Source: a virus (taxonomy: Duplodnaviria > Heunggongvirae > Uroviricota > Caudoviricetes). Taken from it: a DNA stretch of 8,508 bases. The notes under the pieces are model-generated. The model ran no database searches. It was not told the origin of the DNA and saw nothing but the letters and a program-made list of their open reading frames with translations. How positions within the stretch are numbered: position 1 is the stretch's first letter; each line of letters starts with the position of its first letter. The stretch lies in IMG/VR virus record IMGVR_UViG_2541047956_000009; one strand, 5' to 3'. Shown in pieces: positions 1 to 8,508 of this stretch. Position numbers and translations under genes: made by a program.

Positions 1-2241
1 ACAGAGCTTGTGGAGGACACGCAGGCCATTGCCCGTTACGGTCGTAACGTCACGAAGATGGATGCCTTTGGCTGTACCAGTCGGGGGCAGGCACACCGAG
101 CCGGGCTGTGGCTGATTAAAACGGAACTGCTGGAAACGCAGACCGTGGATTTCAGCGTGGGCGCAGAAGGGCTTCGCCATGTGCCGGGCGATGTTATTGA
201 AATCTGCGATGATGACTATGCGGGTATCAGCATCGGCGGGCGCGTGCTGGCGGTGAACAGCCAGACCCGGACGCTGACGCTCGACCGTGAAATCACTCTG
301 CCATCCTCCGGTACCACGCTGATAAGCCTGGTTGACGGAAGCGGCAATCCGGTCAGCGTGGAGGTCCAGTCCGTCACCGACGGCGTGAAGGTAAAAGTGA
401 GCCGGGTTCCTGACGGCGTTGCCGGATACAGCGTGTGGGGGCTGAAGTTGCCGACGTTGCGCCAGCGCCTGTTCCGCTGCGTGAGTATCCGGGAGAACGA
501 TGACGGTACGTATGCCATCACCGCCGTGCAGCATGTACCGGAAAAAGAAGCCATCGTGGATAACGGGGCGCACTTTGACGGTGACCAGAGCGGCACGGTG
601 AATGGTGTCATGCCGCCAGCGGTGCAGCACCTGACCGCCGAAGTCACCGCAGACAGCGGGGAATATCAGGTGCTGGCGCGCTGGGACACGCCGAAGGTGG
701 TGAAGGGGGTGAGCTTTATGCTTCGCCTGACCGTGGCAGCGGATGACGGCAGTGAGCGGCTGGTCAGCACGGCCCGGACGACGGAAACCACATACCGCTT
801 CAGGCAACTGGCGCCAGGGAACTACAGGCTGACAGTCCGGGCGGCAAATGCCTGGGGACAGCAGGGCGATCCGGCGTCGGTATTGTTCCGGATTGCCGCA
901 CCGGCAGCGCCGTCGCGGATTGAGCTGACGCCGGGCTATTTTCAGATAACCGCCACGCCGCATCTTGCCGTTTATGATCCGACGGTACAGTTTGAATTCT
1001 GGTTCTCGGAAAAGCGGATTGCGGATATCAGGCAGGTTGAAACCACAGCCCGCTATCTTGGCACGGCGCTGTACTGGATAGCTGCCAGTATCAATATCAA
1101 GCCGGGCCATGATTATTATTTTTACATCCGCAGTGTGAACACCGTTGGCAAATCGGCATTCGTGGAGGCTGTTGGCCAGCCGAGTGATGATGCATCCGGC
1201 TATCTGGATTTTTTCAAAGGAGAGATAGGGAAAACCCATCTGGCTCAGGAGTTGTGGACGCAGATTGATAACGGTCAGCTTGCGCCTGACCTGGCGGAAA
1301 TCAGAACGTCCATCACGGATGTCAGTAATGAAATCACGCAGACCGTCAATAAGAAACTGGAAGACCAGAGTGCAGCGATCCAGCAGATACAGAAGGTTCA
1401 GGTTGATACAAATAATAACCTGAACAGCATGTGGGCTGTGAAGCTGCAGCAGATGCAGGACGGACGCCTTTATATCGCGGGTATTGGTGCCGGTATTGAA
1501 AACACCCCTGACGGCATGCAGAGTCAGGTGCTGCTGGCGGCAGACAGGATTGCGATGATTAATCCTGCGAATGGCAACACAAAGCCGATGTTTGTTGGTC
1601 AGGGCGATCAGATATTTATGAATGAAGTGTTCCTGAAATATCTGACGGCTCCCACCATTACCAGCGGCGGTAATCCTCCGGCATTTTCCCTGACACCGGA
1701 CGGGCGGCTGACGGCGAAAAATGCCGATATCAGCGGTAACGTGAATGCGAACTCCGGGACGCTCAACAACGTCACGATTAACGAGAACTGTCGGGTTCTG
1801 GGAAAACTGTCCGCGAACCAGATTGAAGGCGATCTCGTTAAAACAGTGGGCAAAGCTTTCCCCCGGGACTCCCGTGCACCGGAGCGGTGGCCATCAGGGA
1901 CCATTACCGTCAGGGTTTATGACGATCAGCCGTTTGACCGGCAGATTGTTATTCCGGCGGTGGCATTCAGCGGCGCTAAACATGAGAGAGAGCATACTGA
2001 TATTTACTCCTCATGCCGTCTGATAGTGCGGAAAAACGGTGCTGAAATTTATAACCGTACCGCGCTGGATAATACGCTGATTTACAGTGGCGTTATTGAT
2101 ATGCCTGCCGGTCACGGTCACATGACGCTGGAGTTTTCGGTGTCAGCATGGCTGGTAAATGACTGGTATCCCACAGCAAGTATCAGCGATTTGCTGGTTG
2201 TGGTGATGAAGAAAGCCACTGCAGGCATCACGATTAGCTGA
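1..2241 (+). CDS. J: Tail tip / host-specificity protein J, C-terminal ~746 aa (5' end outside window)
   Basis: Frame-1 ORF is open from base 1 (the listed GTG at 10 is an internal codon) to TGA at 2239-2241. The N-terminal part of the translation ([51 protein letters not shown]...) matches lambda gpJ as I recall it almost residue for residue; the C-terminal part is recognisably J-like but divergent. Confidence 0.93.
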
Positions 2242-2308: not shown

Positions 2309-2908
2309 ATGCGTAAATTATGTGCTGTTATTCTGTCCGCAGTAGTCTGGCTGGTTGCCGCTGGTACGCCAGCGAGCGCAGCAGAGCATCAGTCCACACT
2401 AAGCGCCGGGTATCTTCAGACCCATACTGATATGCCAGGCAGCGATGACCTGAAGGGCATTAACGTGAAATACCGTTATGAATTTACGGACACGCTGGGG
2501 CTGGTGACGTCATTCAGCTATGCAGGAGACAAGAATCGCCAGCTTACCCGTTACAGCGATACCCGCAGGCATGAAGATTCCGTTCGTAACCGCTGGTTCA
2601 GCGTGATGGCGGGGCCATCTGTACGCGTGAATGAATGGTTCAGTGCTTATGCGATGGCAGGTGTGGCTTACAGCCGTGTTTCGACGTTCTCCGGGGATTA
2701 TCTCCGCGTAACTGACAACAAGGGGAAAACGCACGATGTGCTGACCGGAAGTGATGACGATCGCCACAGCAACACGTCTCTGGCGTGGGGAGCTGGCGTG
2801 CAGTTTAACCCGACCGAATCCGTGGCCATTGATATTGCTTATGAAGGCTCCGGCAGTGGCGACTGGCGCACTGACGGTTTCATCGTGGGTGTCGGTTATA
2901 AGTTCTGA
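2309..2908 (+). CDS. lom: Lom-family outer membrane beta-barrel protein (Ail/PagC/OmpX family)
   Basis: 199-aa ORF with a signal-peptide-like N-terminus ([35 protein letters not shown]...) and a C-terminal ...[10 protein letters not shown] ending in aromatic residue. Closely matches lambda Lom as recalled. GAGAGG Shine-Dalgarno 8 nt upstream of ATG 2309; position immediately after J as in lambda. Confidence 0.92.
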
Positions 2909-2962: not shown

Positions 2963-2972
2963 TGGAGTGGAT

Positions 2973-5330
2973 ATGGCAGCAGTAAAAATCTCAGGTGTGC
3001 TGAAAGATGGTGCGGGAAAACCAATACAGAACTGCACTATTCAACTGAAGGCAAAGCGTAACAGCACCACGGTACTGGTGAACACGGTGGCTTCTGAAAA
3101 TCCGGATGAAGCCGGACGTTACAGCATGGATGTTGAGTATGGCCAGTACAGCGTCACCCTGCTGGTTGAAGGTTTTCCGCCTTCACATGCCGGGACCATT
3201 ACCGTCTATGAAGGCTCCAGACCAGGTACGCTGAATGATTTTCTCGGTGCCATGACGGAAGAGGATGTCATGCCGGAGGCATTGCGTCGTTTTGAGGAAA
3301 TGGTGGAAGAAGCGGCACGCAACGCTGAAGCCGCCTCTCAGAGCGCAGCGGCGGCAAAGAAATCCGAAACTGCAGCGGCATCATCGAAGAACGCGGCGAA
3401 AACCTCAGAAACGAATGCAGCTAATAGTGCACAGGCGGCAGCGACCTCAAAGACTGCATCGGCAAACTCCGCGACAGCAGCCAAAAAATCAGAAACCAAC
3501 GCGAAAAATAGCGAGACAGCCGCAAAGACGAGCGAAACCAACGCAAAGTCCAGCCAGACGGCAGCGAAAACCAGCGAAACGAATGCCAAAGCCAGTGAAA
3601 CTGCGGCGAAAAATAGCCAGAATGCAGCAGCCGAAAGCGAGAGTGCGGCAGCTGGTTCTGCGACTTCAGCAGCTGGATCAGCAACTGCTGCGGCTAACAG
3701 CCAGAAAGCAGCGAAGACGAGCGAAACTAACGCAAAGTCCAGCCAGACGGCAGCGAAGACCAGCGAAACGAATGCCAAAGCCAGCGAAACTGCGGCGAAA
3801 AGCAGTCAGGATGCAGCAGCCCAAAGCGAGAGTGCCGCAGCTGGTTCTGCAACAGCGGCAGCTAATAGCCAAAAAGCTGCAAAAACCAGTGAAACTAACG
3901 CAAAGACGAGTGAAACAAAAGCAGCAGCTAGCGAGACAGAAGCAACGTCAGCCGCAACAAGAGCAGAGAATGCAGCCCGGATTGCAGAAGATGCCGCTGA
4001 TCCTGCTTCTGTCCCTCCGCTTCCTGATATCTGGCTACCCTTGAATGATTCTCTGGAAGCGATAACAGGGTATGCCCCGGGCTATAAAACAATAACCATC
4101 GGCAGTGATGAAATAACAATGCCTGTTAATGGCATATGCCAATTTAGCCGGGCTTCATCTGCAACGTATATTGATAAGTCCGGGCATATTACCGTGGCAG
4201 GGAATAACGTTCCTCGTTTTGAAAAATATGGTTTGCTGATAGAGAATCAGCGAACAAACATGTTCGTAAATAGTTTTAATCCTGATGCCTGGAATAAAAG
4301 CGGTGGTATATCTGTAACATCATCAACAGATGAATTTGAGTTTAAATATGGACGTTTCACGGTAGGAAGCGATATAGCAGGAACGACAACAGGGAGAAAT
4401 ATATGCACAGTTGCTGGTAACAAAGGCATAGATGTGACTGGCGATGATCAGTACAGTAAAGGTCCGTATGTTACCGCGTCGTTCAGGGTAAGAAGTGATC
4501 TCAATGTTCGCGCACGTATCCGTTTTGAACGGTATAACTCGGAAGGATACACCTTCCTTTGCGATGCCTATTTGTCATTACAGACCCATGAACTACAAAT
4601 TACTGGTGGCAATGCCCAGCTATTAACAGCAAACTTTGAAATCGATCCTGGTAGTGGATGGATATACTTTCAGGCAACACTGAAATGTCTGCCAGAATGG
4701 GGAATGGTTGGTACGCAGCTGCAAATTGCAGCCGACAGAGCTGTGGGGTCTTTTGCAACAGGTGACTGGATAGAAGTAACCACCCCGCAATTCGAGTATG
4801 GTGCTTGTGCAACTTCCTTCATCATAACGACAACAGAGCCAGCGACTCGTGCATCAGATTTATGTAAATTTCCGCTGATGAAAAATATGTATACCATGCC
4901 TTTTACGTTCATGGTGGAAGTCCATAAAAACTGGTTTATTTCTCATAATGCTGCACCGCGTGTCATTGATTCAGAAAATCACCAGTCCGGAGGCCCATTT
5001 ATTATGGGGTTTGGTTCTTCTGGAACTATTAGTCAGGACGGTTATTCGTATTGCGATATAGGCGGGGCTAACCGACGTGTATATGAATCATGCGGAGTAA
5101 GGGATCTCGTTATGGGATTCAGGGTTAAGGCTGACGGCATGACATGCTCATTTGCAAATAAGCATATAAGCACTGAAACAAAAACAGTATGGAAATATAT
5201 TCGTGAAGCAGCCGTGATTCGTATCGGGGGGCAAACGACGACAGGATTACGACACCTTAATGGTCATATAAAAAACCTCCGTTTCTGGAACAGAGCATTG
5301 TCAGATACGCAGCTTAAGGAATACGTATAA
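2973..5330 (+). CDS. stf: Side tail fibre protein (Stf-like): lambda-type N-terminus, Ala/Ser/Thr/Lys-rich repeat shaft, divergent C-terminal receptor-binding region
   Basis: N-terminus MAAVKISGVLKDGAGKPIQNCTIQLKAKRNSTTVLVNTVASENPDEAGRYSMDVEYGQYSV... matches the lambda Stf N-terminus as recalled. ATG at 2973 with GGAG 5 nt upstream is the likely start (the ORF track's 2967 is an upstream GTG). A long low-complexity AAKTSETNAK-type repeat region is followed by ~440 aa unlike lambda Stf, ending ...IKNLRFWNRALSDTQLKEYV, a motif I recognise from LamG/concanavalin-A-like lectin domains. Confidence 0.85.
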   Translation: MAAVKISGVLKDGAGKPIQNCTIQLKAKRNSTTVLVNTVASENPDEAGRYSMDVEYGQYSVTLLVEGFPPSHAGTITVYEGSRPGTLNDFLGAMTEEDVMPEALRRFEEMVEEAARNAEAASQSAAAAKKSETAAASSKNAAKTSETNAANSAQAAATSKTASANSATAAKKSETNAKNSETAAKTSETNAKSSQTAAKTSETNAKASETAAKNSQNAAAESESAAAGSATSAAGSATAAANSQKAAKTSETNAKSSQTAAKTSETNAKASETAAKSSQDAAAQSESAAAGSATAAANSQKAAKTSETNAKTSETKAAASETEATSAATRAENAARIAEDAADPASVPPLPDIWLPLNDSLEAITGYAPGYKTITIGSDEITMPVNGICQFSRASSATYIDKSGHITVAGNNVPRFEKYGLLIENQRTNMFVNSFNPDAWNKSGGISVTSSTDEFEFKYGRFTVGSDIAGTTTGRNICTVAGNKGIDVTGDDQYSKGPYVTASFRVRSDLNVRARIRFERYNSEGYTFLCDAYLSLQTHELQITGGNAQLLTANFEIDPGSGWIYFQATLKCLPEWGMVGTQLQIAADRAVGSFATGDWIEVTTPQFEYGACATSFIITTTEPATRASDLCKFPLMKNMYTMPFTFMVEVHKNWFISHNAAPRVIDSENHQSGGPFIMGFGSSGTISQDGYSYCDIGGANRRVYESCGVRDLVMGFRVKADGMTCSFANKHISTETKTVWKYIREAAVIRIGGQTTTGLRHLNGHIKNLRFWNRALSDTQLKEYV
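3525..3885 (+). repeat. Intragenic direct tandem duplication (~189 bp unit, second copy ~21 bp shorter) within stf
   Basis: The sequence from 3525 (aagacgagcgaaaccaacgcaaagtccagccagacggcagcgaaaaccagcgaaacgaatgccaaagccag...) recurs from 3714 (aagacgagcgaaactaacgcaaagtccagccagacggcagcgaagaccagcgaaacgaatgccaaagccag...) with few mismatches. Protein level: KTSETNAKSSQTAAKTSETNAKASETAAK...SESAAAGSAT...AANSQKAA occurs twice. A shorter degenerate SETNAK-type periodicity spans ~3340-3960. Confidence 0.75.
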
Positions 5331-5599
5331 TGCGGGATATAACATTACGATTCGATAACAGAGAACAGTTTAACGCAATTGTATATGACAGTGGCCTGTT
5401 CAGTCTTGAAGAAGAAAACGGGGTTCTTGTTGATGTTATTGGCTGCATTATCGATTACGAGGAGCCAGAAAACGAAAGATGTACAGGCATTGATCGCGGT
5501 GGTTTTTTCGTAAACATGAGGATTGTTGATAGCAGTAAAAACATATCTTCTTTAATGCCTTTCATTACGACAGATCAGCATGTAAGGACATGGGCTTAA
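5330..5599 (+). CDS. Hypothetical 89-aa acidic protein, translationally coupled to stf
   Basis: ATG at 5330-5332 overlaps the stf TAA stop (5328-5330) in the sequence ATAATG; AAGGA 9 nt upstream. AT-rich. No family recognised and no resemblance to lambda Tfa. Confidence 0.5.
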   Translation: MRDITLRFDNREQFNAIVYDSGLFSLEEENGVLVDVIGCIIDYEEPENERCTGIDRGGFFVNMRIVDSSKNISSLMPFITTDQHVRTWA

Positions 5600-5611
5600 T
5601 GGAGTAAGACA

Positions 5612-6652
5612 ATGGTTACAAAAACAGTAATTCCTGATGATATCAAAACGCTAAAATCCGACGTTAGCAAATTAAAAAACGATCAAGGGAGCTACGCAAC
5701 AAAATCATATGTAGACAATAAAACAACATGGAATAGTTATTGCAATGTAATCTATGATCAAAAGACATTGCCGACCACTGGAACTATATTTAGCGGTAAG
5801 ATTCACTTGTCAAATAAGACAGGAGAAACCGAAAACGCTTATAGTGAGATGTACACCAGAAAAAATATTGACGGTACAAAAGATACAATGACAAGGATTG
5901 TCACACACAATGGAACAAAAGGTATCTTTTGGGATTTTAGCGATCTTTACGGCGGAACATTAATTTTTCCAGGCAGTGATGGTTACCTTAAGATGGGGAA
6001 CTGTCTCATGTCGTATGGTGTGCGGGGAAGTAACGCGCTTATTAAGTTTGACTGCACAGACACATTACAAATCAAATATGCTAATCACGGGTCGACCATG
6101 ACACTAAACACGCAAGGTACGGCGTATTCTGGTGTGTCGACGTTATTATGGGGAAATTCCAGTCGTCCAGTTGTTTATGAAATTAGGGATGATGGCGGGC
6201 TTTTTTTGTTTTATGCACAAAGGAACCCAGATAAAACCTATCAGCTTGAGATAAACGGGCCATGCAAGGCAACATCATTCGACCAGGTGTCGGACAGAGA
6301 TCTTAAAGAAAACATTCGGGTTATTGATAATGCCACTGAACGCATCAGATTAATGAATGGGTATACTTACCGTCTCAAGTCTAATGGTATGCCTTATGCT
6401 GGCGTTATTGCGCAAGAGGCACTTAATGCAATCCCTGAATCAGTTGGTAGCACAATAAAGTACAAGAGCGGGGACAATGGGTCTGATGGAGAAGAGGGAG
6501 AAAGATACTATACCGTCGATTACTCAGGCGTAACGGGTTTGCTTGTTCAGGTAGCCAGAGAGTCAGACGACAGAATAACAGCACTGGAAGAAGAAAACGC
6601 AGAATTAAAACAAAGATTATCTGCAATTGAGGCGGCGCTTGCGTCCAAATAA
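5612..6652 (+). CDS. Tail-fibre-like protein with C-terminal intramolecular chaperone (peptidase S74-type) autoproteolytic domain
   Basis: 346-aa ORF, GGAG 7 nt upstream of ATG 5612. C-terminal ~120 aa (...FDQVSDRDLKENIRVIDNATERIRLMNGYTYRLKSNG...AGVIAQEALNAIPESV...DDRITALEEENAELKQRLSAIEAAL) has the S-D-x-x-x-K-E-N-I signature and terminal helical segment typical of self-cleaving chaperone domains of endosialidases and L-shaped tail fibres. The N-terminal ~225 aa is Thr/Gly/Asn/Tyr-rich and of unknown fold. Confidence 0.75.
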   Translation: MVTKTVIPDDIKTLKSDVSKLKNDQGSYATKSYVDNKTTWNSYCNVIYDQKTLPTTGTIFSGKIHLSNKTGETENAYSEMYTRKNIDGTKDTMTRIVTHNGTKGIFWDFSDLYGGTLIFPGSDGYLKMGNCLMSYGVRGSNALIKFDCTDTLQIKYANHGSTMTLNTQGTAYSGVSTLLWGNSSRPVVYEIRDDGGLFLFYAQRNPDKTYQLEINGPCKATSFDQVSDRDLKENIRVIDNATERIRLMNGYTYRLKSNGMPYAGVIAQEALNAIPESVGSTIKYKSGDNGSDGEEGERYYTVDYSGVTGLLVQVARESDDRITALEEENAELKQRLSAIEAALASK

Positions 6653-6658
6653 TATTAA

Positions 6659-6682
6659 GGGGGCCGAGCGCCCCGTTTTATT
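6659..6682 (+). terminator. Possible weak intrinsic terminator after the fibre-like gene
   Basis: Short GC stem GGGGC (6660-6664) / GCCCC (6670-6674) with a 5-nt loop, followed by GTTTTATT. The stem is only 5 bp. Confidence 0.35.
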
Positions 6683-6689
6683 GGGTAGG

Positions 6690-6983
6690 ATGAAAATGGA
6701 TATAACACCTTTCCTTCATGCACTTTGTGCTGTGGCTGCGCAGCTACTGATTGGTCTTTTTACCGGGAACTGGGCTTACGGGGCGATAGCCGGTTGTACA
6801 TTCTTCATTGCGCGGGAACACACCCAGGCAGAATATCGCTGGATTGAAATGTTCGGGCATGGCAAGCGTATGAATATGCCGTGGTGGGGCGGTTTTGATC
6901 CACGTGCATGGGATGTGGCAAGCCTGATGGATTTTGCTGTGCCGGTGGTGGCGTGTCTGCTGATCTGGATGTTGATCCGTTAA
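6690..6983 (+). CDS. Small hydrophobic (membrane) protein, ~97 aa, function unknown
   Basis: The ORF is open from 6627, but a GGGTAGGA purine tract sits just before ATG 6690 and ATG 6696 (MKMDITPF...), so the first 21 codons are probably untranslated. Two clear hydrophobic segments (LHALCAVAAQLLIGLFTGNWAYGAIAGCTFFIA and VASLMDFAVPVVACLLIWMLI). Visibly GC-richer than the genes on either side. Confidence 0.55.
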   Translation: MKMDITPFLHALCAVAAQLLIGLFTGNWAYGAIAGCTFFIAREHTQAEYRWIEMFGHGKRMNMPWWGGFDPRAWDVASLMDFAVPVVACLLIWMLIR

Positions 6984-6999
6984 ATATAAAAAGTAAAAA

Positions 7000-7033
7000 G
7001 CCGCAGTAACTTGTCATGATAGGATACTGCGGC
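7000..7033 (-). terminator. Hairpin terminator, likely ending the DinI-like transcript
   Basis: 9-bp inverted repeat GCCGCAGTA (7000-7008) / TACTGCGGC (7025-7033) with a 16-nt loop. On the - strand the hairpin is followed by a U-rich tract (+ strand 6985-6999 is A-rich). No T-run follows on the + strand, so termination of the + strand membrane gene here would be weak. Confidence 0.45.
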
Positions 7034-7100
7034 TGGCTGGTTAACTTTCGATAGTGCGAGTATTGAATGATTTCCAGCCGTTACCGATTTTACGTGTTAA

Positions 7101-7349
7101 TTAGTGAACAAACCACTCGTCAGCAGACTCCCAGGTATCTTTCAGAGTTTCCTGAACAAAAGTTTTAGCTGAATCTTTATCGGCGGTGCGCGTAACAGAA
7201 AGGCCATCGTTGCTGGTGGCTTTTACGATCACCTCTACATCGTCATAACGTTTACTGATGCGTCGGGTTAATTCTTCCTTTAACGCATCCACAGCACCGG
7301 TTGGCATTTTAGTCATTTTTTCTTTGGCTATGCAGATTTCAATACGCAT
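7101..7349 (-). CDS. DinI-family protein (SOS-inducible modulator of RecA, prophage paralogue)
   Basis: 82-aa product [82 protein letters not shown] aligns along its length with E. coli DinI as recalled (MRIE..IAK...P.GA.DAL..EL.RRI...LSV...KD...QET..WESAD.WFV). GAGGGA Shine-Dalgarno (revcomp of 7355-7360) 5 nt upstream of the ATG. Confidence 0.88.
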
Positions 7350-7362
7350 AAAAGTCCCTCTA

Positions 7363-7414
7363 TACTGTGTTTGTATACAGTGTTATTTTTAACTGTATGG
7401 ATAAACAGTGTCAA
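7363..7414 (-). promoter_or_regulatory. SOS-type promoter of the DinI-like gene: two LexA boxes plus sigma70-like -35/-10
   Basis: Box 1 at 7363-7382 (TACTGTGTTTGTATACAGTG) and box 2 at 7391-7410 (AACTGTATGGATAAACAGTG) both fit CTGT-N8-ACAG exactly. On the - strand a perfect TTGACA (revcomp of 7409-7414) overlaps box 2 and is followed after 17-18 nt by TAAAAAT as a candidate -10, with box 1 over the expected transcription start. Confidence 0.7.
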
Positions 7415-8508
7415 GAGGTCTTATTTCTGCTCTTTTGGAGCTCTTCAAAACGATTATGTAAAGATTTCGGATACAGTTCGGTATATACCTGCCATAGCAC
7501 GTTTAATGAACGATGCCCTGTAACTTGGGCGACTTCCTCAATACTAAAACCAGCCTCAAATAAGCGACTTGCCCCTTCTCTACGCAAATCATGGTATCGC
7601 AGATCTTTAATACCTAATTTGCTTCTTACCCTCTGAAATCCCGCAGTAACAGAAGTGCTGTTATATGGAAAAATGAATTCCGATTTTTGGGGCTGTCGTT
7701 GGACGATATCCCAGGCTTCCCCAAGCAAGGCTACTTTCATGTGGTTGCCTTCCTTTTTGCGTGGATCTTTCCTGTCTCTTACGAGTATAGATTTTTGTTC
7801 CTGGTCGAGATCTTCCCATCGTAACCGGCATACTTCTCCGATTCGCATACAGGACCACACAGAAAATTTGAGGATATCAACGAACGGAATTTTTGAGCAT
7901 TTATGTGTAGATCGTTGTTGAAGACCTTCAATGAGCATGTCCAGTTCATCAGATGCCGGTCTACGATTACGACGGTTTGATTTACCAATCAAACCAAGTT
8001 TAAGTAGATATGGACGAGCACTTTTCGCCGGGTTTGATGTGTAATTAATTCCGTATACAGGTTTGGCCGCATCCAGAACACTGCCAAGATAACTAACATC
8101 GTGGCTGACTGTTGCTGGACCTGCACCAGCGTTGTTTCTTAGCCTACAATGTTCAATTACGTCATTTTCTGTCAGTTCGGATAGTTTGATCGCGGAGATG
8201 TCACTATCCATAAGCAGTTCCAGCACATATCTTTTAGTACGACCTGCTTTACCTCCGGCATTTGGGTCATTTAAATATTTGTGTAGTAAGTCACGGACTG
8301 TAAGTCCGTCAACTGCATTTGATGATGGAATGCCATATAGATCTAATTCCATCACTTTCTGTGTACCCCATGTTTTGGCATGGGCATGTTTAGGGAATGT
8401 TTTGCTTTCCCTGTAAGTGATAACACCTTTTTCTTTGATAATCACATTACAGCGATAGCGTGGTGTGCCATCGGATTTTAGTCGTTTCTCTATGTTATAG
8501 TACGCCAT
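7411..8508 (-). CDS. int: Tyrosine-type site-specific integrase (phage integrase family)
   Basis: 365-aa ORF on the - strand whose ATG is the last three bases of the window (it may extend beyond). C-terminal catalytic region has the conserved layout: R in ...CMRIGEVCRLRWEDL, HxxR in RYHDLRREGASRL, and the probable nucleophilic Tyr in GHRSLNVLWQVYTELY. Arm-binding-like N-terminal region. Confidence 0.9.
   Translation of the reverse strand: MAYYNIEKRLKSDGTPRYRCNVIIKEKGVITYRESKTFPKHAHAKTWGTQKVMELDLYGIPSSNAVDGLTVRDLLHKYLNDPNAGGKAGRTKRYVLELLMDSDISAIKLSELTENDVIEHCRLRNNAGAGPATVSHDVSYLGSVLDAAKPVYGINYTSNPAKSARPYLLKLGLIGKSNRRNRRPASDELDMLIEGLQQRSTHKCSKIPFVDILKFSVWSCMRIGEVCRLRWEDLDQEQKSILVRDRKDPRKKEGNHMKVALLGEAWDIVQRQPQKSEFIFPYNSTSVTAGFQRVRSKLGIKDLRYHDLRREGASRLFEAGFSIEEVAQVTGHRSLNVLWQVYTELYPKSLHNRFEELQKSRNKTS

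Follow-up and report, generated by a model that had tools for sequence, protein, structure and literature searches.

A predicted distal side-tail-fibre subunit with a self-cleaving chaperone domain in a lambdoid E. coli prophage

Gene organization

The DNA analysed here, 8508 nucleotides in length and referred to as the window, comes from a lambdoid E. coli prophage, of which it forms the right end. Its features are listed in Table 1. The side-tail-fibre gene stf is followed closely by two genes on the same strand: the stf stop codon overlaps the ATG of a gene for an 89-residue protein (TAATG), and a gene for a 346-residue protein, the subject of this work, starts with ATG 12 nt after the stop codon of the former. 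No promoter-like site was found on the + strand in a scan of positions 5200-5612, which take in the final 131 nt of stf and the entire 89-residue gene. The hairpin beyond the 346-residue gene is a candidate for the end of the fibre transcription unit, and we suggest that the gene lies in the late operon and is transcribed with the late genes.

Inside stf, at about position 4038, the GC content of the window drops to 43% from 54%; it stays near 40% through the 346-residue gene and is 52% afterwards. From this profile we conclude that the C-terminal domain of Stf, the small gene and the 346-residue gene were imported as a cassette. The earlier note on this DNA had placed the gene in an AT-rich moron region. 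The low-GC cassette starts within stf, and the gene is packed behind stf and the 89-residue gene with a terminator-like hairpin after it. At least 80% of the stretch 5300-7000 is carried by 173 of 5426 complete E. coli genomes.

Table 1. Features of the window and the basis of their assignment
Feature	Position	Strand	Basis
J, C-terminal part	10-2241		
lom	2309-2908		
stf, 787 residues	2967-5330	+	
Stf N-terminal tail-attachment domain (lambda-type, phage_tail_N) and Ala-rich repeat shaft; backbone-specific	2967-4037	+	PF08400
Stf C-terminal ~430 residues, conserved proximal-fibre domain, lectin-like, proposed socket	4038-5330	+	Cross-phage identity
Conserved small protein, 89 residues	5330-5599	+	PHROG 1361; no Pfam family
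GGAG ribosome-binding site (Shine-Dalgarno), 7 nt before the ATG at 5612	5601-5604	+	Sequence read
Distal side-tail-fibre subunit gene, 346 residues, C-terminal self-cleaving chaperone (predicted)	5612-6652, stop included	+	ORF list, PF13884, PHROG 4563, dN/dS
N-terminal plug motif, residues 1-17, MVTKTVIPDDIKTLKSD; proposed to dock onto the proximal fibre	5612-5662	+	Motif kept across modules
Short alpha-helical, coiled-coil-like stalk, residues ~10-38	5639-5725	+	Alignment insertions; AF2 helices
Variable beta-rich central domain, residues ~39-175	5726-6136	+	Least conserved family segment; mosaic divergence
Conserved fibre domain, residues ~176-226, WGN-x3-R-x2-V-x-E...FY-x-Q...NG	6137-6289	+	T4 gp34-like
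Intramolecular chaperone/Peptidase_S74 domain, residues 227-346, 13.2 kDa	6290-6649	+	PF13884; invariant Ser/Lys
Catalytic Ser227 (predicted)	6290-6292	+	
Lys232	6305-6307	+	
Terminator-like hairpin GGGGCC-GAGC-GCCCC then GTTTTATT, 8 nt past the stop codon	6660-6681	+	Consensus scan only
Small membrane-protein gene	6696-6983		
dinI	7101-7349	-	
Integrase gene	7411-8508	-	

Family and selection

The earlier note had given the open reading frame exactly, and its assignment of a fibre-type protein carrying a chaperone signature is borne out by profile searches. PHROG 4563 (`tail fiber protein') covers the sequence end to end, with residues 1-346 corresponding to profile positions 1-346 (E = 5.6e-201), and the Pfam family Peptidase_S74 (PF13884) matches residues 227-278 with 47.3 bits (E = 2.5e-12; the cut-off is 22 bits). 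Database proteins labelled `tail fiber domain-containing protein' are 97% identical to it. A search for the family retrieved 111 clusters, several of which have hundreds to thousands of members, almost all from E. coli.

Pairwise dN/dS values against 12 distinct relatives range from 0.08 to 0.18, with a single value of 0.38, and the gene is under strong purifying selection over its full length. Divergence is mosaic: against one relative dS is 0.14 in the centre and 1.3 in the chaperone, and is saturated in between. In PhiR47_1, a viable phage, the homologous gene is interrupted by a nonsense codon at residue 295, and the segment corresponding to 5605-6526 is cleanly deleted from two prophage loci. 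The gene is therefore dispensable in some settings, which fits an accessory host-range fibre.

Domain structure and predicted cleavage

The protein begins with a 17-residue motif that leads into a short stalk. Alignment of relatives reveals a variable number of inserted DVSxLKxD-type repeats in this stalk, for which AF2 predicts helices at residues 11-26 and 31-36 with low confidence. The variable central domain is presumed to be the receptor-binding part. The domain that follows it matches, in profile searches, the T4 gp34 entries 4uxe, 5nxf, 5nxh and 9x3r of the PDB (E of about 2e-8), and in a 28-sequence alignment its residues Trp180, Gly181, Arg185, Val188, Glu190, Asn215 and Gly216 are invariant. 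The profile also matches gp37 of S16 (6f45; E = 1e-7). A direct sequence search against PDB chains gave no match.

The string S-D-R-D-L-K-E-N-I at residues 227-235 marks the start of the chaperone domain. Ser227, Asp228, Leu231 and Lys232 are invariant among the same 28 sequences, down to 33% identity, and this invariance is far beyond chance. The spacing from serine to lysine (+5) equals that of Ser1264 and Lys1269 in T5 pb1. In the AF2 monomer the chaperone consists of helices at 229-273, strands at 278-302 and a helix at 304-345 (pLDDT 71-91). The last of these probably forms a trimeric coiled coil; coiled-coil peptides weakly match profile positions 337-370 in a profile search against PDB sequences.

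The earlier note had predicted cleavage after Ser227. Cleavage of T5 pb1 takes place at the Thr1263-Ser1264 bond, so that the serine leaves with the chaperone, and the same position relative to the serine has been reported for K1F (PMC4690869). Since both proteins are cut before their serine, we expect the cut to fall before Ser227, between Val226 and Ser227. The computed products are a 25.2 kDa mature part and a 13.2 kDa released domain. The segment beside the predicted cleavage site is conserved rather than variable, unlike the tip of T5 pb1.

The AF2 monomer model, computed from the 28-sequence alignment, has a mean pLDDT of 62.9 and a pTM of 0.34. A poor monomer model is expected, because the protein is presumably an intertwined trimer. 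A Foldseek comparison of this low-confidence model with the PDB gave nothing below E = 0.1, the top match being T4 gp34, and was given no weight as evidence.

The proximal fibre and the 89-residue protein

Stf is a composite. Its N-terminal part is of lambda type (PF08400, residues 5-134, E = 2e-66) and is 98% identical to Stf of Tritos, but only 24-38% identical to T1- and T5-type N-termini. Its C-terminal domain is 43-52% identical across four backbones when JenP1, T1-like and T5-like loci and IrisVonRoten are compared; it was found in 205 phage records, and over 59 IMG/VR loci the identity ranges from 35 to 100%. The NCBIfam model GTA_spike_fiber matches this domain (E = 2e-12), and Laminin_G_3 gives a sub-threshold match at its very end. 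Stf has neither an S74 domain nor Tfa.

The 89-residue protein is 29-36% identical to its counterparts in other modules. Gene order suggests that it works together with the C-terminal domain of the proximal fibre, most plausibly as the chaperone of that domain or as a fixed part of the joint. The survey comprised 59 IMG/VR loci found with a profile of the small protein, and in all of them a Stf-type C-terminal domain is encoded directly upstream of the small gene. Fibre and small gene also occur with no distal gene behind them, in 12 prophage loci for which downstream sequence is available and in two lambdoid loci; in the one such locus that was inspected (L048) the host genes corA and dbpA are directly next. 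The small protein therefore tracks the proximal C-terminal domain and not the distal subunit. A role as an adaptor solely for the distal subunit was considered and rejected, given these approximately 14 loci.

A three-gene module shared by unrelated phages

The 346-residue gene is the third gene of a known three-gene side-fibre module that is already present in many coliphage families, and not the independent second fibre gene for which the earlier note had taken it. The module consists, in order, of a proximal fibre of 650-800 residues, a protein of 88-93 residues and a distal protein of 326-590 residues. Among lambdoid phages it is found in the window, in Tritos, in the PhiR phages and in an E. 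coli prophage (L071). Among the Queuovirinae it is carried by the virulent Nonagvirus JenP1, a related 59.6 kb contig (L008) and the Seuratvirus VogelGryff. In two T1-like contigs (L004 and L006) it sits between the primase and ERF genes, and T5-like examples are IrisVonRoten and L007, where it comes after pb4 and LtfC. A different siphovirus-type prophage (L073) also has it. Strictly virulent phages carry the module too, at their lateral-fibre locus. The proximal N-termini belong to three unrelated attachment classes, namely lambda phage_tail_N, T1-type and T5 LtfA-type.

The distal proteins share little in their centres, which are 21-93% identical to that of the 346-residue protein across modules and 21-38% identical in most. 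They do share an N-terminal motif with the consensus M-x-T-x-T-V/I-I-P-x-D-I-x-x-L-K; the protein of the window starts MVTKTVIPDDIKTLK. The earlier note had seen no obvious attachment module at this terminus, where the motif is common to distal proteins that are otherwise unrelated. In seven of eight other modules, from lambdoid, Queuovirinae, T1-like and T5-like phages, 9-15 of the 17 residues are identical. The eighth is VogelGryff: read from the annotated start, its distal protein has 0 of 17, and the motif appears only when an internal methionine is taken as the start. All six motif-bearing homologues for which the context was looked up are preceded by a small gene. Where a distal gene is adjacent in the IMG/VR loci it carries the motif in 35 of 36 cases, and these 35 genes begin 9-12 nt after the small gene; in the exception (L069) the small gene is followed by one for an S74 protein that starts differently.

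Four types of tip follow the motif: the 346-residue S74 form (16 complete), a mini-S74 form of 227-234 residues, a gp34-trimer type without S74 and a T-shaped protein of 576-586 residues. In the mini-S74 form the chaperone starts at residue 110, leaving approximately 109 mature residues.

Exchange of the tip

The 346-residue protein is 92% identical to gp25 of JenP1 (333 residues), whereas the neighbouring proximal fibre and small protein are 40% and 29% identical, respectively, so the distal gene was exchanged recently. The boundaries of a replacement can be read from a comparison of the window with a locus that has a 227-residue tip (L012). Homology stops at 5655, the 44th nucleotide of the gene, where the plug codons end, and resumes at 6687, after the terminator. 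Judging from these alignments the tip can be replaced alone, besides exchange of the whole cassette.

Interpretation

We consider it probable that the 346-residue protein is an exchangeable subunit that forms the distal, receptor-binding part of a composite side tail fibre. We infer the following course of trimerization, cleavage, docking on Stf, incorporation into the virion and receptor recognition. The gene comes directly after stf and the 89-residue gene and would be transcribed along with the late genes. Three chains would associate, with the S74 chaperone (residues 227-346) nucleating trimer folding through its coiled coil. After correct folding Ser227, activated by Lys232, would cut the Val226-Ser227 bond, freeing the 13 kDa fragment and leaving a trimer of 25 kDa chains. 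Residues 1-17 and the short helical stalk would then plug the trimer onto the lectin-like C-terminal domain of Stf, which the 89-residue protein may fold or to which it may contribute part of the joint. The variable centre (residues ~39-175) would contact a structure of the host surface, for which O-antigen or another glycan is the probable candidate, and would thereby adjust the host range. Docking onto Stf, which the earlier note had named as an alternative, is favoured by the shared N-terminal motif and the conserved module; it is suggested by the co-occurrence of the genes and by the model published for the homologous trio of IrisVonRoten.

The protein could instead be a second fibre in its own right, bound directly to the tail tip or baseplate and not through Stf. 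It has a separate open reading frame with its own ribosome-binding site, and other N-termini, such as MIYTTGTIAINGN or the T1-type MALYRRGTASMDADG, serve for direct attachment in many S74 fibres that share the C-terminal half. We nevertheless regard direct attachment as quite unlikely: the same 17-residue N-terminus recurs on the unrelated tail tips of lambda, T1-like and T5-like phages, the partners common to these are the proximal-fibre C-terminal domain and the small protein and include no baseplate protein, and the approximately 38 residues before the variable domain leave no room for a known baseplate-attachment domain. We give an equally low probability to an assembly factor, a chaperone acting in trans or transient cap for the Stf C-terminal domain that would be absent from the virion. 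Such a role would agree with the annotation of the VogelGryff homologue as a `putative lateral tail fiber chaperone' (MZ501110), with the lack of both S74 and Tfa in Stf itself and with the 227-residue variants, in which the mature part is very little for a receptor binder. S74 domains, however, are intramolecular and fold their own chain, and the centre is hypervariable, mosaic and like a receptor-binding domain, whereas a chaperone of a conserved domain should be conserved. Many phages have the Stf C-terminal domain and no copy of this gene, so the latter is not required for folding of that domain, for which the 89-residue protein, always found with it, is the better chaperone candidate.

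That the gene is non-structural prophage cargo (a moron), or the decaying remnant of a longer fibre with no role in the virion, seems to us very improbable indeed. It does lie at the low-GC end of a prophage near dinI and int, and nonsense and deletion variants exist. [quoted passage not shown] Against this, purifying selection acts strongly on the full length, and most loci, as well as thousands of database members, have the gene intact at 346 residues. Further arguments against a moron are the lack of a promoter-like site of its own above chance level in the scanned region, the terminator that follows, the presence of the gene at the lateral-fibre locus of virulent phages, which have no lysogenic state, and PADLOC searches with the 346-residue protein, the 89-residue protein and the downstream membrane protein, in which no defence system was matched; a reading of the gene as a defence or moron gene was rejected on this last result.

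A wider proposal, quite possible but put forward tentatively, is that residues 1-17 and the ~430-residue C-terminal domain of Stf constitute a plug-and-socket standard across phage families, possibly completed by the 88-93-residue protein. This standard would let lambdoid, T1-like, T5-like and Queuovirinae phages, and possibly rV5-like myoviruses, trade at least four tip architectures. To our knowledge, such a general system has not been formally described to date; the single paper found on the subject treats one T5-like case and leaves the small protein aside. If the proposal is correct then the small protein would be a new kind of fibre-joint or chaperone component.

Taken alone, the locus carries little weight, as it is a routine determinant of host range in an E. 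coli prophage. A short conserved plug and a conserved socket would make tips interchangeable between virulent phages and lambda-based delivery particles through the swap of one small gene, and the natural recombination boundaries, 44 nt into the gene and just past the terminator, provide a guide to where to cut. The pattern also points to the unstudied 89-residue protein that always accompanies the socket domain.

Comparison with known systems

The window resembles the Stf-Tfa system of lambda in the N-terminal domain of Stf (PF08400) and in its position after J and lom. It differs in that there is no Tfa-type assembly chaperone downstream of stf and no tip of the lambda/T4 gp37 type, and the distal two thirds of the fibre are an imported cassette. 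The view in the earlier note that this is not lambda architecture thus holds. A preprint on the engineering of lambda vectors makes no mention of chaperones or of a three-gene module, and literature searches for a second lambdoid fibre with an intramolecular chaperone and for a paper behind the PhiR (ECOR) phages returned nothing specific.

The chaperone is best compared with that of T5 pb1 (PDB entries 4UW7 and 4UW8), although the PDB searches gave no sequence match between the two proteins. The pb1 chaperone, of approximately 120-133 residues, has a catalytic serine and a central trimeric coiled coil and is released after folding, exposing the tip (PMC4690869). Both proteins have the chaperone at the C-terminus, with a lysine five residues after the serine. 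In contrast, pb1 is a single chain of 1396 residues that is attached directly to the tail, and the domain before its cut is a `bullet'; the segment before the predicted cut of the 346-residue protein matches T4 gp34 by profile (E = 2e-8).

A second fibre protein carried through a first, as we propose here, has a precedent in DT57C, in which genetic and cryo-EM data indicate that LtfB reaches the virion only by way of LtfA and in which the fibres decide the infection of O-antigen-bearing hosts (PMC4728585, PMC10713586). LtfA and LtfB are adjacent by protein-table numbering (gp108 and gp107), which suggests that, unlike in the window, there is no small gene between them.

JenP1 carries the same trio as the window (gp23-gp24-gp25; NC_029028). 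It differs in being a virulent phage with modified DNA, and the last ~13 residues of its chaperone are not those of the 346-residue protein. No functional study was found. More broadly, the authors of BASEL-1 noted that in T5-like phages and small siphoviruses a lateral fibre may be built from one polypeptide or from two or more proteins, and according to a 2026 preprint clusters of lateral-fibre proteins extend across Tequintavirus, Dhillonvirus, Drexlerviridae and Seuratvirus.

A close published parallel comes from IrisVonRoten, and in view of it the gene is not novel. In BASEL-2 the homologous trio was treated as a complex of proximal and distal fibre: Gp24 was modelled with AlphaFold-Multimer as attached to the proximal fibre Gp22, which has a galectin-like C-terminal domain, and the small protein Gp23 was not discussed (PMC11990801). 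The gene order of bas32_0022, bas32_0023 and bas32_0024 (Gp22-Gp24) is that of the window; the C-terminal 430 residues of the proximal fibre are approximately 52% identical and the small protein is 36% identical. Gp24 begins MVTKTVIPTDITKLK, shares 12 of its first 17 residues with the 346-residue protein and ends in an S74 chaperone. Beyond the motif the two align in the chaperone only (29%). Gp24 has 574 residues and is `T-shaped', with Gp12-like and T5-like binding domains, whereas the protein of the window has a single, unrelated centre. The proximal N-termini also differ, being of T5 LtfA-type in IrisVonRoten and of lambda phage_tail_N-type in the window. BASEL-1 found IrisVonRoten to be the only T5-like isolate that infects K-12 with restored O16, and the BASEL work links this phage to recognition of the O16 O-antigen.

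Origin and start of stf

The proximal fibre gene, stf, is of uneven composition, with a GC content of 53.7% over 2967-4037 and 43.3% over 4038-5330. The break marks the graft point at which lambda-type attachment and shaft sequences are joined to an imported cassette. The shaft region displays an AT skew of up to 0.64 and carries long spurious ORFs in other frames. As listed, stf has a GTG start (2967-2975) and the protein begins VDMAAVKISG. From sequence comparison the ATG at 2973 is the likelier start, since the Stf proteins of relatives begin at a methionine two codons downstream of the listed GTG (MAVQISG in the lambdoid Tritos).

Features of the fibre module, its 3' neighbours and comparison loci (window coordinates unless a locus is named)
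Feature	Position	Assignment or content	Remarks
Stf shaft	3265-4044	Ala/Ser/Thr/Lys-rich quasi-repeats, KTSETNAK-type	
Composition break	~4000-4040	GC step	Inside stf, away from gene borders
Small protein, 89 aa	5330-5599	PHROG 1361	
Hydrophobic protein, 95 aa	6696-6983	PHROG 1443	Directly past terminator
DinI-family gene and complete 365-aa integrase gene	7101-8508		Minus strand; adjoin fibre module
PhiR47_1 (L001) distal gene copy	6313-7353 (L001)		Nonsense codon at residue 295
L069 distal-position gene	4780-6282 (L069)	500-aa S74 protein after small gene	N-terminus MSITTEGKVTAEKG

The small protein

No Pfam family matched the 89-aa protein, and its named homologues are all 'hypothetical' (120 listed of 344 homologous clusters). 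An AF2 model has a small alpha/beta fold, for which no informative structural match was obtained. The gene is always preceded by the Stf-type C-domain, the conserved C-terminal portion of proximal fibres, even at loci that have no distal gene. The protein is a candidate chaperone or joint component.

Variation in the distal gene

The distal subunit, which ends in a Peptidase_S74 (S74) chaperone domain, varies among the comparison loci. Eleven of these (L012, L013, L017, L031-L033, L035-L037, L039 and L068) encode shorter subunits of 227-234 aa, which retain the same conserved N-terminal motif, the plug, and are encoded from 12 nt past the small gene. Their S74 domain starts at residue 110 and the predicted mature part would therefore be only ~109 aa, essentially the plug, a coiled coil and a tiny tip. 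The plug rule is broken by the L069 protein, which starts MSITTEGKVTAEKG. The open frame upstream is ~1331 aa measured back to the preceding stop codon, and for that reason the true proximal fibre of L069 may be shorter.

Phage PhiR47_1 forms plaques and the nonsense codon in its distal gene falls within the chaperone domain; the central segment (aa ~36-100) of this copy differs too. In L038 and L040 a clean deletion (at about 4775/4764), equivalent to window positions 5605-6526, has removed nearly the entire distal gene and left the last ~125 nt. The prophage group L041-L059, on contigs of about 53 kb, pairs a proximal fibre of ~600 aa with the small protein, and the twelve loci with downstream sequence lack a distal subunit after this pair. 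At L048 (4501-8070), the sole locus inspected, these two are the final phage genes and are followed by host corA and dbpA.

Genes 3' of the module

The gene for the 95-aa hydrophobic protein shares 93-95% DNA identity with many lambda-like phages. Neither Pfam nor PADLOC gave a match and the product is possibly a true moron or a membrane protein. The integrase start codon is the final triplet of the window; the attachment site therefore lies outside it.

Relationship to other phage fibres

The Stf-type C-domain was also matched (query residues 36-426, about 47% identity) in nomine, CarlMeissner, EmilHeitz and APECc02, rV5-like myoviruses of ~138 kb, where it is encoded within lateral fibre genes. 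The KTSETNAK-type quasi-repeats of the Stf shaft recur in Gp22, the proximal fibre of the T5-like phage IrisVonRoten.
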